A program made the translations under genes and the position numbers. Below, in pieces: positions 7,585 to 28,154 of a stretch of 33,320 nt of DNA; position 1 is the first letter of the stretch, and the number at the start of each line of letters is the position of its first letter. The stretch comes from a bacterium. GTDB lineage: Bacteria; Patescibacteriota; Minisyncoccia; Phycocordibacterales; UBA918. The notes below the pieces were generated by a model. That model ran no database searches. It was not told where the DNA came from and was given only the letters and a program-made list of their open reading frames with translations. The stretch covers positions 1-33,320 of the forward strand of contig PAMC01000006.1 in assembly GCA_002710785.1 (NCBI GenBank), given 5' to 3'.

Positions 7585-8457
7585 CTATTCCGCCGTTTTG
7601 GCTGCTTTAATGGCAGACTCTTTAGTTCGAGCGATAAACAAATAGCGATCTTTGTGGCAGAAAATTGCGTCCGCAATTCCTGAAACGGCTGCTAGCTCCT
7701 CATCACGCAACCCTGCCCAGGCTTCAGGAAAGCGTACTCGGGTGAGGTACTCAGTCTCACTAACCTGCACACCAACTGCAGACCAACCAGGATTATCATC
7801 GAAACGGGGTACCACTACCATGTTCACTTCTTCGTGTTGAACAAACTCACTACGTGGCACATACTCATCGCTCACTAAAATACTTTGTCCTGCCGAACGC
7901 TCGTATAACTCGGCGGCTTTCTGTTTTAAAACCTCTTTGATTTGTCTACGCTGTATAACTCGTTCTAGGTAGGCTCGGGCAACATCCACTGCCTGTAAAA
8001 ACTGTGTGTCCATGTCTTCGCCCTTCGTTGGTTCTGCACGCCATGTCTGCAGAATGTCATCCCACTCAAGTGGTGGTAAATCAAACTGACCAGGTTGCCA
8101 AATGTTGAGTGCGTTATCACTGGCATCGATTGGCACACAGAGTTTCTCTTCGATCTTGTCTGCTACCGCCTGCGAGCCACAAATTTTTTCACCGAAGTGC
8201 TTCCACACCAACCCAAAAGCGGCGTACGGAATACCATTTTCACGCACTGGTGCACCGGGTTGATGGTGGTCGAAGCGGTTTTGGGCGGCGTCGTAGACGC
8301 CACCCACGTCTACCACATAATCACCAGTGGCAATGACTGCCTCATCGCGCGACCGAATAACTTCAAGGTTTTCTTTCCCTAACAACAGCTGCAGCGTCGC
8401 TACGGCAAATACGTCATCGGCATGAAAGCTGCCACTGTGAGTCACGATTGTTGTCAT
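7585..8457 (-). CDS. MYG1-family (UPF0160) DHH-like exonuclease/hydrolase
   Basis: THSGSFHADDVFA, VVDVGGVYD, RFDHHQ, FPEAWAG and FCHK motifs. Confidence 0.92.
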   Translation of the reverse strand: MTTIVTHSGSFHADDVFAVATLQLLLGKENLEVIRSRDEAVIATGDYVVDVGGVYDAAQNRFDHHQPGAPVRENGIPYAAFGLVWKHFGEKICGSQAVADKIEEKLCVPIDASDNALNIWQPGQFDLPPLEWDDILQTWRAEPTKGEDMDTQFLQAVDVARAYLERVIQRRQIKEVLKQKAAELYERSAGQSILVSDEYVPRSEFVQHEEVNMVVVPRFDDNPGWSAVGVQVSETEYLTRVRFPEAWAGLRDEELAAVSGIADAIFCHKDRYLFIARTKESAIKAAKTAE

Positions 8458-8515
8458 GTCGACATACTACCGTACCTGCTTTATTTTCAAAACTAGTACG
8501 GTATAGTGATGATCT

Positions 8516-8647
8516 GAGAAGTGGCGGAATAGGTAGACGCGCGAATAAGGGTTTGTAGTAGTGGTACGCGCAGAGTAACCCCGAAAAACCCGGTAACCAG
8601 TCCAGCTCATAAGCGTACTGTTGTGAGGTGCAAATCCTCACCTTCTC
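8516..8647 (+). ncRNA. Non-canonical tRNA-like RNA with 82-nt internal domain, in the tsaD leader
   Basis: GAGAAG/CTTCTC acceptor-like stem, Leu-type D-arm TGGCGGAATAGGTAGACGC, T-arm GTGAGG-TGCAAAT-CCTCAC, and a -10 TATAGT at 8502-8507. Confidence 0.7.
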
Positions 8648-8658
8648 GTAATTTGTGT

Positions 8659-9837
8659 ATGCGAATTCTCTCCATTGAAACATCGTGTGACGAGACCGCT
8701 GTGAGCGTCGTGAGCGTTGGTGGCAAGTTTCCGCACGCTACGTATGCAGTAGCTGGCAACGGCCTGTACTCACAGAGTGACATTCACGCCGAGTTTGGTG
8801 GCGTCTATCCCACGGTCGCCAAGCGCGAGCACGCCAAGGCGCTGGTGCCGATGATGTACAAGGCGCTCGAGGAAGCCGAGCTGGTTAGCGAAGAGCCGAG
8901 CGAACTCAGCAAAGCACAAATGGGCGAGCTGGCGGAAATTATCATCCGTGAGCCAGAGCTCTACACGCAGCTCACACAGTGGGTCGAGCGCTTCGCTAGG
9001 CCCGACATCGACGTCATTGCCGTCACCACCGGCCCAGGCCTGGCACCAGCACTCTGGGTAGGGGTAAATTTTGCCAAAGCGTTAGCAAAAGTATGGGACA
9101 TCCCGGTCGTGCCGGTTAACCACATGGAAGGTCACGTGCTGGCGAGTATTTTTGACGTCGACCAAGACGATATGCTCTCTGACATTACCTTCCCCGCCCT
9201 CTCGCTTTTAATATCTGGTGGACACACTGAGCTGGTGCTGATGCAGAAGTGGGGTCAGTACGAAAAAATTGGCCAAACCCGCGACGACGCCGTCGGTGAA
9301 GCGTTTGATAAAGTAGCGCGCCTCATGGGCTTACCCTACCCCGGTGGCCCGCAAATAAGCAAACTGGCGCAAAAAGCGCGGGTAAAAGAACTGCCACCGT
9401 ACAAAGACGACTTGCCCCGTCCGATGCTCAATAGTGGCGACCTCGACTTCTCTTTCTCGGGCCTTAAAACGTCTGTCCGGTATGCACTTGAGGGCAAGGA
9501 GCTCTCTGAGACCGAACAAATGGCCCTCGCCCGCGACTTCGAAGACTGTGTAGCTGAAACCCTGATTGGTAAAACCAAGCAAGCCCTTGAGCAGACCGGT
9601 GCGCAAACCCTAATTGTTGGCGGTGGCGTCTCAGCCAACCAGTACCTGCGGACTCAGTTTGAACTAGAGCTCACAACCGAGTACCCCGAGCTTACCGTCT
9701 ACTTCCCAATGCCAGGGCTCTCGACTGACAACTCGGTGATGATTGCGCTCGCTGGCCACGCCAAACTCGACGGTAAGCTCGCGCCGCAAGCCGCCGTGGA
9801 GCTCCTTAAAGCCGACGGAAATAAGTCGTTGTCGTAA
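8659..9837 (+). CDS. tsaD: tRNA N6-threonylcarbamoyltransferase TsaD
   Basis: MRILSIETSCDETA, GPGL, VNHMEGH metal motif, SGGHT, DDAVGEAFDK, FSFSGLKT, GGGVSAN, TDNSVMIA. Start set at ATG 8659. Confidence 0.97.
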   Translation: MRILSIETSCDETAVSVVSVGGKFPHATYAVAGNGLYSQSDIHAEFGGVYPTVAKREHAKALVPMMYKALEEAELVSEEPSELSKAQMGELAEIIIREPELYTQLTQWVERFARPDIDVIAVTTGPGLAPALWVGVNFAKALAKVWDIPVVPVNHMEGHVLASIFDVDQDDMLSDITFPALSLLISGGHTELVLMQKWGQYEKIGQTRDDAVGEAFDKVARLMGLPYPGGPQISKLAQKARVKELPPYKDDLPRPMLNSGDLDFSFSGLKTSVRYALEGKELSETEQMALARDFEDCVAETLIGKTKQALEQTGAQTLIVGGGVSANQYLRTQFELELTTEYPELTVYFPMPGLSTDNSVMIALAGHAKLDGKLAPQAAVELLKADGNKSLS

Positions 9838-27702: not shown

Positions 27703-27726
27703 AAAAACTCCCCCCGAGAGGGAGTT
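27703..27726 (-). terminator. Terminator of rnpB
   Basis: Minus strand AACTCCC..GGGAGTTTTT. Confidence 0.7.
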
Positions 27727-27729
27727 CTG

Positions 27730-28137
27730 GGCACCTATAAGCCGAATTCTGTCGCTTTTCACGAGTGAAAAGCGGATGATCATATACCTGGGGTCGACAT
27801 TGCTGTCGAGCTCCTGCGGCTCTCCTGGCACCACTTATACTTTGAAGCCTTCAAAGTATAAGTGGTGCCGGCACGGCCTTGCACACCGGTAAGGATTTAG
27901 CCGTTTCACTTCGCGTGTTGCCACGCGAGCTACTCCCAGAGGGAGCTCCATTGCTTTCGCGCCGGACGTCTCTGCTCGCACCTCTCTGCCGGTAACCGAC
28001 AGCGACGGGTGTTACCCGCTACCTTGCTACTGGTGCCGGTGGCACCAGTGTGTGTTCGGACTTTCCTCCGTGTCCTGGCGGATGCACTCTAGCGTGACTC
28101 GAGTGCATTCGCCAGGACACGGCGACCATCAGATGCC
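27730..28137 (-). ncRNA. rnpB: RNase P RNA
   Basis: Minus strand GAGGAAAGTCCG and ACAGAATTCGGCTTAT universal motifs, P1 GGCATCT/AGGTGCC, long P3 hairpin, -10 TATAGT at 28143-28148. Confidence 0.96.
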
Positions 28138-28154
28138 TGGATACTATACCACAA

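Follow-up and report, generated by a model that had tools for sequence, protein, structure and literature searches.

What is the transfer RNA (tRNA)-shaped element that lies immediately upstream of tsaD in contig PAMC01000006.1 (assembly GCA_002710785.1) of a patescibacterium? In the window, that is, the first 33,320 nucleotides (nt) of this contig, 201 nt separate the tsaD ATG from a divergent MYG1-family gene (7585-8457, minus strand; PF03690). A preliminary description made from the letters alone had placed there a TATAGT box, an acceptor-like stem followed by TG, a Leu-type D arm, a T arm with the loop TGCAAAT and no CCA. All of these strings were found at their positions. The tsaD ATG does follow downstream, although at 8659-8661, 10 nt after discriminator G8648, and not 11 nt later as had been counted. 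Comparative analysis of this 133-nt element showed that its tRNA-like stems covary and that the 82 nt between its D and T arms, hereafter the core, recur in phages and prophages. We put at about 0.5 the probability that the element encodes a phage-type small RNA on a tRNA-like scaffold that would provide signals for processing, and that it is co-transcribed with tsaD.

Folding energy by itself was unremarkable: the minimum free energy of the element is -36.2 kcal/mol (z = -0.07), and 97 of 200 shuffled sequences folded equally well. The support for its structure is comparative. A blastn search against 41 relatives returned two full-length homologues (G001 and G007), in which homology started at the first base of the acceptor stem and stopped at or just past its last base. 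A covariance model built from the element (R1) gave full-length hits in 10 of 128 genus genomes (106-151 bits), and a pattern scan of metagenomes yielded 12 further scaffolded contigs. The scaffold alignment comprised 23 homologues in 20 distinct rows, namely 22 copies from the lineage plus one from Pseudomonadota (L073). Over its 23 rows, pairing in the acceptor, D and T stems amounted to 99.0% of cells, compared to 89.2% in shuffles; changes on both sides occurred at 8 of 15 pairs, none of 500 shuffles matched this result, and slid registers were far worse. The six pairs of the acceptor stem (99.2% paired) showed such changes at three positions and the six of the T stem (98.3% paired) at four, and in the D stem a G-C pair was swapped for A-U in 7 of the 20 distinct rows. 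The stack of 6+6 base pairs (bp) and the D stem that had been described earlier were thus borne out by covariation.

The likeness of the scaffold to tRNA-Leu extends beyond its stems. The D arm region is 95-96% identical, over 22-24 nt, to the tRNA-Leu genes of the same genome, the D loop retains GG (G18G19), and the T loop retains C56. A discriminator A is present in 22 of the 23 scaffolded copies and in all four tRNA-Leu genes of the genome, the window's own copy having G. R1 also matched genuine 80-85-nt class II tRNAs of the genus, such as tRNA-Leu(TAG) at G000:C18:1474-1553. The window element encodes no CCA (8648-8651 is GTAA), which is normal here because only 6 of the 39 tRNA genes encode it; the only proteobacterial scaffolded copy, L073, located beside a major head protein gene, encodes ACCA. 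Most copies, including L073, carry the T loop UGCAAAU, with G at tRNA position U55, and all 39 tRNAs found by ARAGORN in the genome have TTC at the corresponding site. Together the acceptor and T stems have the 12 bp of a tRNA, split 6+6 and not 7+5. Among the features of a canonical tRNA, the locus therefore presents the D arm with G18G19 and the discriminator base and lacks the 7+5-bp stems, the T loop UUCRANY and the anticodon stem-loop. No anticodon stem flanks the 82-nt core, the bases adjoining the D arm being paired within it (helix P1). ARAGORN reported four ordinary tRNAs in the window, none of them at 8516-8648; five of six settings of its intron and transfer-messenger RNA (tmRNA) modes found nothing at the locus, and the sixth (80% threshold, long intron) gave an implausible tRNA-Thr with a 48-nt intron. 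An interrupted tRNA, one of the options raised at first, is rejected on these data and on the selection seen in every stem. In IMG/VR, no scaffolded form was found, either with a UGCAAAU-type or with a canonical T loop.

The core proved to be structured in its own right. In an alignment of 41 standard-order sequences, 95.9% of the cells in its stems were paired compared to 73.2% in shuffles, and none of 500 shuffles reached this value. The covariation check proposed in the preliminary description thus came out positive in the scaffold as well as in the core. The 10-bp helix that it had drawn between 8560-69 and 8613-22 holds for 8563-8569 and 8613-8619 (helix B) and not for the rest: A8560 is part of the conserved AGUA, and G8561 and U8562 pair with C8542 and G8541 in helix P1, whose outer pair is formed in 41 of 41 sequences by five pair types (GC 20, AU 7, GU 7, CG 4, UA 3). 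Similarly, GGGUU at 8549-8553 is indeed pseudoknotted, but its partner is AACCC at 8577-8581, with GC and CG substitutions in 7-10 sequences, and not the previously suggested 8586-8591. Pairing with the latter reached 85.4% compared to 84.3% in shuffles and was equalled by 29 of 500 of them; it may represent an alternative pairing. Because neither P1 nor the pseudoknot was in the model used to make the alignment, the support for both is independent of it. The CTCATAA previously taken for an anticodon-loop sequence is not in a hairpin loop. It belongs to a segment that reads GCUCNUAR in every copy of the core, in which CUC (8606-8608) pairs with GAG (8573-8575) in helix C and AUAA is a strand of an internal loop. 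The conserved GAA and AGUA face each other and could form a loop-E or S-turn module; helix D, weak in this lineage, differs in length among the other copies. Some 35 positions of the core are nearly invariant across phyla, and there is no open reading frame in the core, which has conserved UAA and UAG triplets in all frames. All in all, the 82-nt insert is an independent RNA motif and not a degenerate anticodon region. The positions of all these features are collected in Table 1.

Table 1. Features of the tsaD upstream element and of its core in the window.
Feature	Position	Strand	Basis or remark
-10 box TATAGT	8503-8508	+	sequence; 8 nt 5' of the element
Whole tRNA-scaffolded RNA, 133 nt including discriminator G8648	8516-8648	+	blastn boundaries and R1 hits
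Acceptor-like stem, 5' strand GAGAAG	8516-8521	+	pairs with CUUCUC 8642-8647
TG after the acceptor strand	8522-8523	+	sequence
D arm, stem GCG/CGC (8524-8526, 8538-8540), loop GAAUAGGUAGA with GG, class II Leu type	8524-8540	+	
Core motif, 82 nt	8541-8622	+	core model R2 scores 91 bits
P1, two-pair helix	8541-42 with 8561-62	+	second strand directly 3' of the conserved AGUA
GAA opposite AGUA	8543-45, 8557-60	+	conserved in the core
Pseudoknot A, 5 bp, GGGUU/AACCC	8549-53 with 8577-81	+	
Helix B	8563-69 with 8613-19	+	7 pairs, changes on both sides at all 7
Helix C, GAG/CUC	8573-75 with 8606-08	+	
Conserved CCGAAAAACCC	8581-91	+	core
Helix D, short	8592-93 with 8602-03	+	hairpin
T arm, 6-bp stem GUGAGG 8623-8628/CCUCAC 8636-8641, loop UGCAAAU 8629-8635	8623-8641	+	
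Acceptor-like stem, 3' strand CUUCUC	8642-8647	+	stem covariation
A/U-rich 10-nt spacer without Shine-Dalgarno sequence	8649-8658	+	
tsaD, 392 amino acids	8659-9837	+	Pfam PF00814 TsaD, 268.2 bits, E 1.2e-79

The distribution of the core was determined with a core-only covariance model (R2), which in the genome searches was applied under strict filters to the top 30-36 candidates per genome, so that weak copies may have been missed. R2 found the core in 12 of the 128 genus genomes, one copy in each, and 116 congeners were without it. Among 151 genomes from 131 genera of the order only the window's own core was found, that is, 0 of 149 sampled genomes from the other 130 genera had one. These counts suggest that the core was acquired within the genus and is not ancestral there. 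Two congeners, G136 and G091, which gave weaker R1 hits, carry a bare core without tRNA arms, and that of G136 has its own -10 box and terminator.

Outside the genus, the core is associated with phages. An IUPAC pattern of the core matched 20 loci in species-representative genomes, all of which R2 recognized at 34-99 bits; 11 were in congeners and nine in Rhizobiales and other Pseudomonadota, Solitalea and metagenome-assembled genomes of Armatimonadales and Fusobacteriaceae. The pattern also matched 25 IMG/VR contigs. Bare cores were present in prophages of Alphaproteobacteria, Bacteroidota, Fusobacteriota and Armatimonadota, and blastn searches against GenBank phages matched 30 and 45 records, with named hosts that include Rhizobium, Erwinia, Proteus, Klebsiella, Pectobacterium and Escherichia. 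Three of these records belong to Demerecviridae (Stubb), Vequintavirinae (Hena1) and Straboviridae (mogra), and RaK2-like jumbo phages were matched as well. Among the matches listed, the phage features annotated under the core were neighbouring tRNAs or hypothetical proteins, and no such RNA gene. In the chromosomes and prophages of 5,426 E. coli genomes, blastn gave no match to the core.

Topology was assigned over the 45 pattern-hit loci. Twenty-seven have the standard order, with helix B as the open end, and L078, left unclassed by the script, was read as standard; ten are tRNA-scaffolded, and in the other seven the order is circularly permuted, so that helix D is open and a loop closes helix B. 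All seven permuted copies lie in loci with 4-24 tRNA genes, on the same strand as the nearest tRNAs, within tRNA clusters of T4-like, T5-like, Vequintavirinae and jumbo phages. In Proteus phage Stubb the permuted core is located between tRNA-Glu and tRNA-Ile, in Erwinia phage Hena1 between tRNA-Gly and tRNA-Glu, and in the T4-like phage mogra tRNA-Met and tRNA-Arg are 101 nt apart, a gap that the core fills. Standard copies are mostly prophage-like and adjoin genes for the small or large terminase subunit, the major head protein or a DUF3307 / phrog_2470 membrane protein. In alphaproteobacterial prophages the core stands 5' of the DUF3307 / phrog_2470 gene, beside terminase genes (loci L070, L071, L079, L090, L093, L094/L095/L110, L096, L100/L104/L108 and L111; the family was checked for two). 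In L082, L089, L091, L102 and L109, the core comes directly after or before the gene for a 77-amino-acid membrane protein (phrog_2421). The closing stem overlaps the AUG or the Shine-Dalgarno (SD) sequence of the next gene in L070, L079, L090, L094, L096, L100 and L111, and is clear of the SD in L071, L093 and L082. A conserved DNA site near the terminase genes (pac/cos) would not explain covarying stems or permuted copies that follow the strand of the tRNAs, and was rejected. The near-invariance of the core across such distant phyla argues for a universal partner or a small ligand and not for a phage-specific protein.

No RNA family of Rfam 15 accounts for the motif. At gathering scores, its 4227 models (including drum, YrlA, ribozymes and riboswitches) gave nothing at the locus, in agreement with the ARAGORN results, and at E <= 10 the best window hit had an E-value of 2.5, from unrelated families. 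At nine standard-core loci only ROSE and tRNA passed the gathering score, away from the core, and at five loci including permuted cores nothing overlapped the motif at E <= 1. In the literature searched, by titles and the openings of abstracts, the motif is not described; supplementary lists of candidate motifs may hold it.

We then turned to the relation of the element to tsaD. All 22 scaffolded lineage copies lie upstream of tsaD on the same strand, so the linkage is real within the lineage; these copies are related by descent and are therefore not 22 independent events. The upstream neighbour varies and may be the MYG1-family gene, a protein that starts ...VVIYH.DC.DGFGAAYAAWKKFGD or a 184-amino-acid membrane protein. 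A hexamer TATAGT, TATAAC or TACAGT is present in 20 of the 22 copies, its end lying 7-9 nt 5' of the first base of the element; in the window this box was missed by a simple sigma-70 scan because no -35 box matches. The spacer from the discriminator to the tsaD start is 6-11 nt long in 19 of 22 copies (L117 read by eye), A/U-rich and devoid of an SD. Two copies of identical sequence have instead a 60-nt spacer with a terminator-like hairpin, and one copy has a spacer of 261 nt. Of these long-spacer copies, G110 and G001 were read, and in both a second -10 box directly precedes the tsaD ATG. In the 60-nt spacer of G110 (L026 / L120), a hairpin with a U run follows the scaffolded RNA and the second -10 box comes after it; in this species the scaffolded RNA appears to be a separate transcription unit.

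Of the congeners that lack the element, 24 were examined, and in 17 of them a -10 box lies 4-11 nt 5' of the tsaD ATG; an SD-like tetramer within 20 nt of the start codon was seen in none of 30 genus loci. About 30 upstream regions of congener tsaD genes (L124-L153) have a TATAGT box some 6 nt before the ATG and no SD. In these congeners tsaD thus looks leaderless, so that the element would occupy precisely the interval from the promoter to the ATG of such a gene. The sister genomes G001, which has the element, and G018, which does not, share the same promoter sequence. A tRNA joined to tsaD also occurs naturally in the genus, since the tsaD ATG of G114 follows 4 nt after the end of a genuine tRNA-Val. 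In a TsaD tree of 44 rows, the element-bearers clustered but were patchy, with eight changes compared to a shuffled mean of 13.8, at least five of the eight being forced by well-supported branches. This polymorphism for presence points to repeated loss or transfer of the element. Since most congeners lack the core and G110 and G001 have second promoters, the element would not be needed for tsaD expression.

Our preferred explanation combines these data as follows. A phage-type pseudoknotted core would have replaced the anticodon and variable arms of a tRNA-Leu-like scaffold. Transcription would start at the tsaD promoter, a few bases 5' of the acceptor stem, and the 12-bp acceptor/T stack, the D/T elbow and the discriminator A would be recognized by the tRNA maturation machinery. 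RNase P would then cut the 5' end, and the organism's tRNA 3'-end pathway together with the CCA-adding enzyme would finish the 3' end. Such processing would free a discrete RNA of about 133 nt and leave tsaD mRNA with an SD-less leader of 6-11 nt, close to the leaderless form of related species. The core would be the working part, probably acting in trans on a highly conserved cellular partner or ligand; elsewhere the same core would be made from its own promoter and terminator or cut out from between phage tRNAs. The genome holds a gene of the CCA-adding-enzyme family, and an RNase P RNA (RF00010) is located at 27722-28141 of the window, on the minus strand; with 91.6 bits it is below the Rfam gathering score of 100 and was therefore not listed in the window-wide Rfam scan. 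Of the options in the preliminary description, an RNase P-processed novel tRNA-like non-coding RNA fits best, given the covarying stems, the discriminator A in 22 of 23 copies and the ACCA of L073, with the processing itself as the presumptive part. Structure, distribution, promoter position, tsaD linkage and the patchy presence of the element are shown by the data; processing, action in trans and an origin in phages are inferred.

Several observations weigh against this explanation. No RNase Z equivalog was found in the genome (best score 19.7 bits against a cut-off of 292.95), so that no enzyme can be named for the endonucleolytic 3' cut by which a near-leaderless tsaD mRNA would be released. 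Because the acceptor stem has 6 bp and not 7 and G stands at the universal U55, tRNA enzymes may fail to recognize the scaffold. The strict 6-11-nt spacing and the complete linkage to tsaD would also fit a cis-acting role, and in several prophages the closing stem looks riboswitch-like in that it reaches into the ribosome-binding site or the AUG of the gene that follows.

A cis-acting leader of this kind, in which the core would bind a small molecule or ion as an aptamer, is possible but unlikely. Its ligand would stabilize the core and the acceptor stem and in this way change access to the start codon or make the tRNA-like processing conditional. Almost invariant positions across phyla and an aptamer-like core with covarying stems are what riboswitch aptamers display, GGG at 8549-51 is able to pair with either of two C runs and could act as a switch, and the position 5' of the DUF3307 / phrog_2470 gene, the closing stem over AUG or SD and the constant tsaD spacer all agree with it. 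However, no uniform expression platform is apparent, since the closing stem overlaps the SD or AUG in some prophage copies and misses the SD in L071, L093 and L082; neither the terminated bare copy of G136 nor the permuted copies between tRNAs are followed by a gene that they could control; in G110 and G001 tsaD is uncoupled from the element; and the genes associated with the core (tsaD, DUF3307, the 77-amino-acid membrane protein or none) share no evident pathway. A further reading, rather improbable as a whole, takes the core, invariant from bacteria of the candidate phyla radiation to T4-like, T5-like and jumbo phages, for a new class of functional RNA that serves as an aptamer or binds to the machinery of translation or of tRNAs, on a CCA-tailed and perhaps leucylated scaffold whose tRNA-shaped module might dock the ribosome for SD-less tsaD initiation. 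A single RNA would then be at once a trans-acting effector processed like a tRNA and a translation initiation element of tRNA shape. A small self-cleaving or otherwise catalytic core is improbable. Circular permutation is typical of hammerhead and twister ribozymes, and the core, which opens at helix B in some copies and at helix D in others, contains a pseudoknot and conserved junction nucleotides that are unpaired, and keeps to phage and tRNA neighbourhoods. Yet no ribozyme family of Rfam 15 matched even at E <= 1-10, cleavage within the core would destroy the scaffolded RNA, no mark of a cleavage site is seen in the sequence, and permutation also occurs naturally in processed stable RNAs such as tmRNA.

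The preliminary description had proposed, as one option, a leader that mimics an ANN-decoding tRNA and binds TsaD (with TsaB and TsaE) through a U36-A37-A38-like CAUAA, to autoregulate tsaD in the manner of the thrS operator. The linkage of every scaffolded lineage copy to tsaD in spite of different upstream neighbours and the presence of GCUCNUAR, with its U-A step, in every copy speak for it. The same segment, however, is part of the core and equally invariant in phage and prophage copies with no tsaD nearby, a situation that had itself been named as counting against autoregulation; CUC is paired and NUAR is an internal-loop strand, without a 7-nt anticodon loop; 116 of 128 congeners lack the core; and G110 and G001 transcribe tsaD from a second promoter. 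The anticodon-mimic idea fails on the invariance of GCUCNUAR wherever the core occurs and on the base-pairing of its CUC, which makes this model very improbable, although some contact of the ever-present U-A step with TsaD is conceivable. Equally doubtful is a chargeable tRNA-Leu-like acceptor, to which CCA is added and which leucyl-tRNA synthetase (LeuRS) leucylates to give an aminoacylated effector, tmRNA-like in concept. LeuRS does not read the anticodon, and A73 in 22 of 23 copies, the Leu-type D arm with G18G19, the ACCA of L073 and the 12-bp stack would suit it. Against these stand the 6+6 split, the G in place of U55, the discriminator G of the window copy, the lack of an open reading frame in the core and the normal tmRNA that the genome already has on C15. 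Finally, a decaying tRNA-Leu pseudogene or a chance fold would explain the silence of ARAGORN and the Rfam tRNA model and the unremarkable folding energy. It is refuted by compensatory changes in every stem among 20 distinct sequences and by conservation of the core from Patescibacteria to phages of Proteobacteria; the covariation of the scaffold (8 of 15 pairs, 0 of 500 shuffles) alone excludes decay.

Among the closest known RNAs is tmRNA (SsrA), which has tRNA-like acceptor and T-arm ends and a pseudoknotted interior in place of an anticodon arm, is processed by tRNA enzymes and exists in natural permuted forms. The element differs from it in having no tag reading frame, G3-C70 instead of the Ala-identity pair G3-U70, and 133 nt as opposed to about 420 nt, and an ordinary tmRNA is present in the genome (C15:298-720). 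The T4 species 1 and 2 RNAs (rnaC and rnaD) are likewise annotated small stable RNAs inside a phage tRNA cluster, and the core of mogra occupies the corresponding genome position. Homology to them was not supported: R2 run with filters off over the 8-kb T4 tRNA region gave at best 6.9 bits (E 1.9). In engineered tRNA scaffolds, in the tRNA-microRNA units of gammaherpesvirus 68 and in MALAT1 mascRNA, the RNA concerned either replaces the anticodon arm or is joined to a tRNA-like module, tRNA enzymes define the ends and the fold protects the RNA; compared to these engineered, viral and eukaryotic RNAs, the element would be a natural bacterial case that is also the 5' part of an mRNA. The thrS operator and other tRNA-mimic or T-box leaders resemble it as tRNA-related 5' structures of genes for tRNA-handling enzymes, but they mimic or bind an anticodon arm and are tied to their gene, whereas the element has no anticodon arm and its core occurs far from tsaD.

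Other candidates were discarded. Bacterial Y RNA (YrlA) is a non-coding RNA with a tRNA-like module, also found in phages, that ends in a Ro-binding stem, whereas the element ends in an acceptor stem; there was no Rfam match to it, and a Ro/TROVE gene was found in none of five core-bearing genomes. The RNA of the signal recognition particle (SRP) was rejected as an identity, the core being restricted to 12 of 128 congeners and without the SRP helix-8 motif. RF00169 and RF01854 found no SRP RNA in G000, and RF00169 found none in G007, G136, G091, G068, G080, one a single-contig genome; the SRP RNA of the genus is either very divergent or missing. For 6S RNA, RF00013 gave no match in the genome.

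If our explanation is correct, the 82-nt core is a new RNA family, absent from Rfam 15 and unannotated in every phage record among the matches listed. Phages that can be handled in the laboratory carry it in their tRNA clusters, among them T4-like Mosigvirus on E. coli K-12, T5-like phages and Vequintavirinae, and it could thus be tested at the very genomic position where T4 has its species 1 and 2 RNAs, which are annotated as no more than small stable RNAs. Engineered tRNA scaffolds would have a natural counterpart in the Patescibacteria copy, in which a functional RNA domain stands where the anticodon arm would be, and standard, permuted and scaffolded forms are available for comparison. It would also mean that a few bases separate a tRNA-like RNA, in one relative a real tRNA, from the start codon of a gene that is normally leaderless, and expression of leaderless mRNAs coupled to tRNA processing in bacteria of the candidate phyla radiation would become directly testable.

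Some further observations concern tRNA maturation and tRNA genes in this genome. A trimming route for the 33 of 39 tRNA precursors without an encoded CCA was not evident. The only RNase Z-like match in the genome, a weak one at G000:C18:67896-68183 (minus strand; 19.7 bits), falls in a 651-amino-acid frame, which is possibly another RNase of the metallo-beta-lactamase fold. On the minus strand at G000:C12:76416-76502, an 87-nt tRNA-like sequence has a Leu-type D arm, a long variable arm, the anticodon GCC and a mismatched acceptor stem. A 92-nt tRNA-like sequence at G000:C14:18113-18204 (minus strand) encodes CCA, and ARAGORN reads it either with a 4-base anticodon or as a tRNA-Leu(UAA) with a 15-nt intron.

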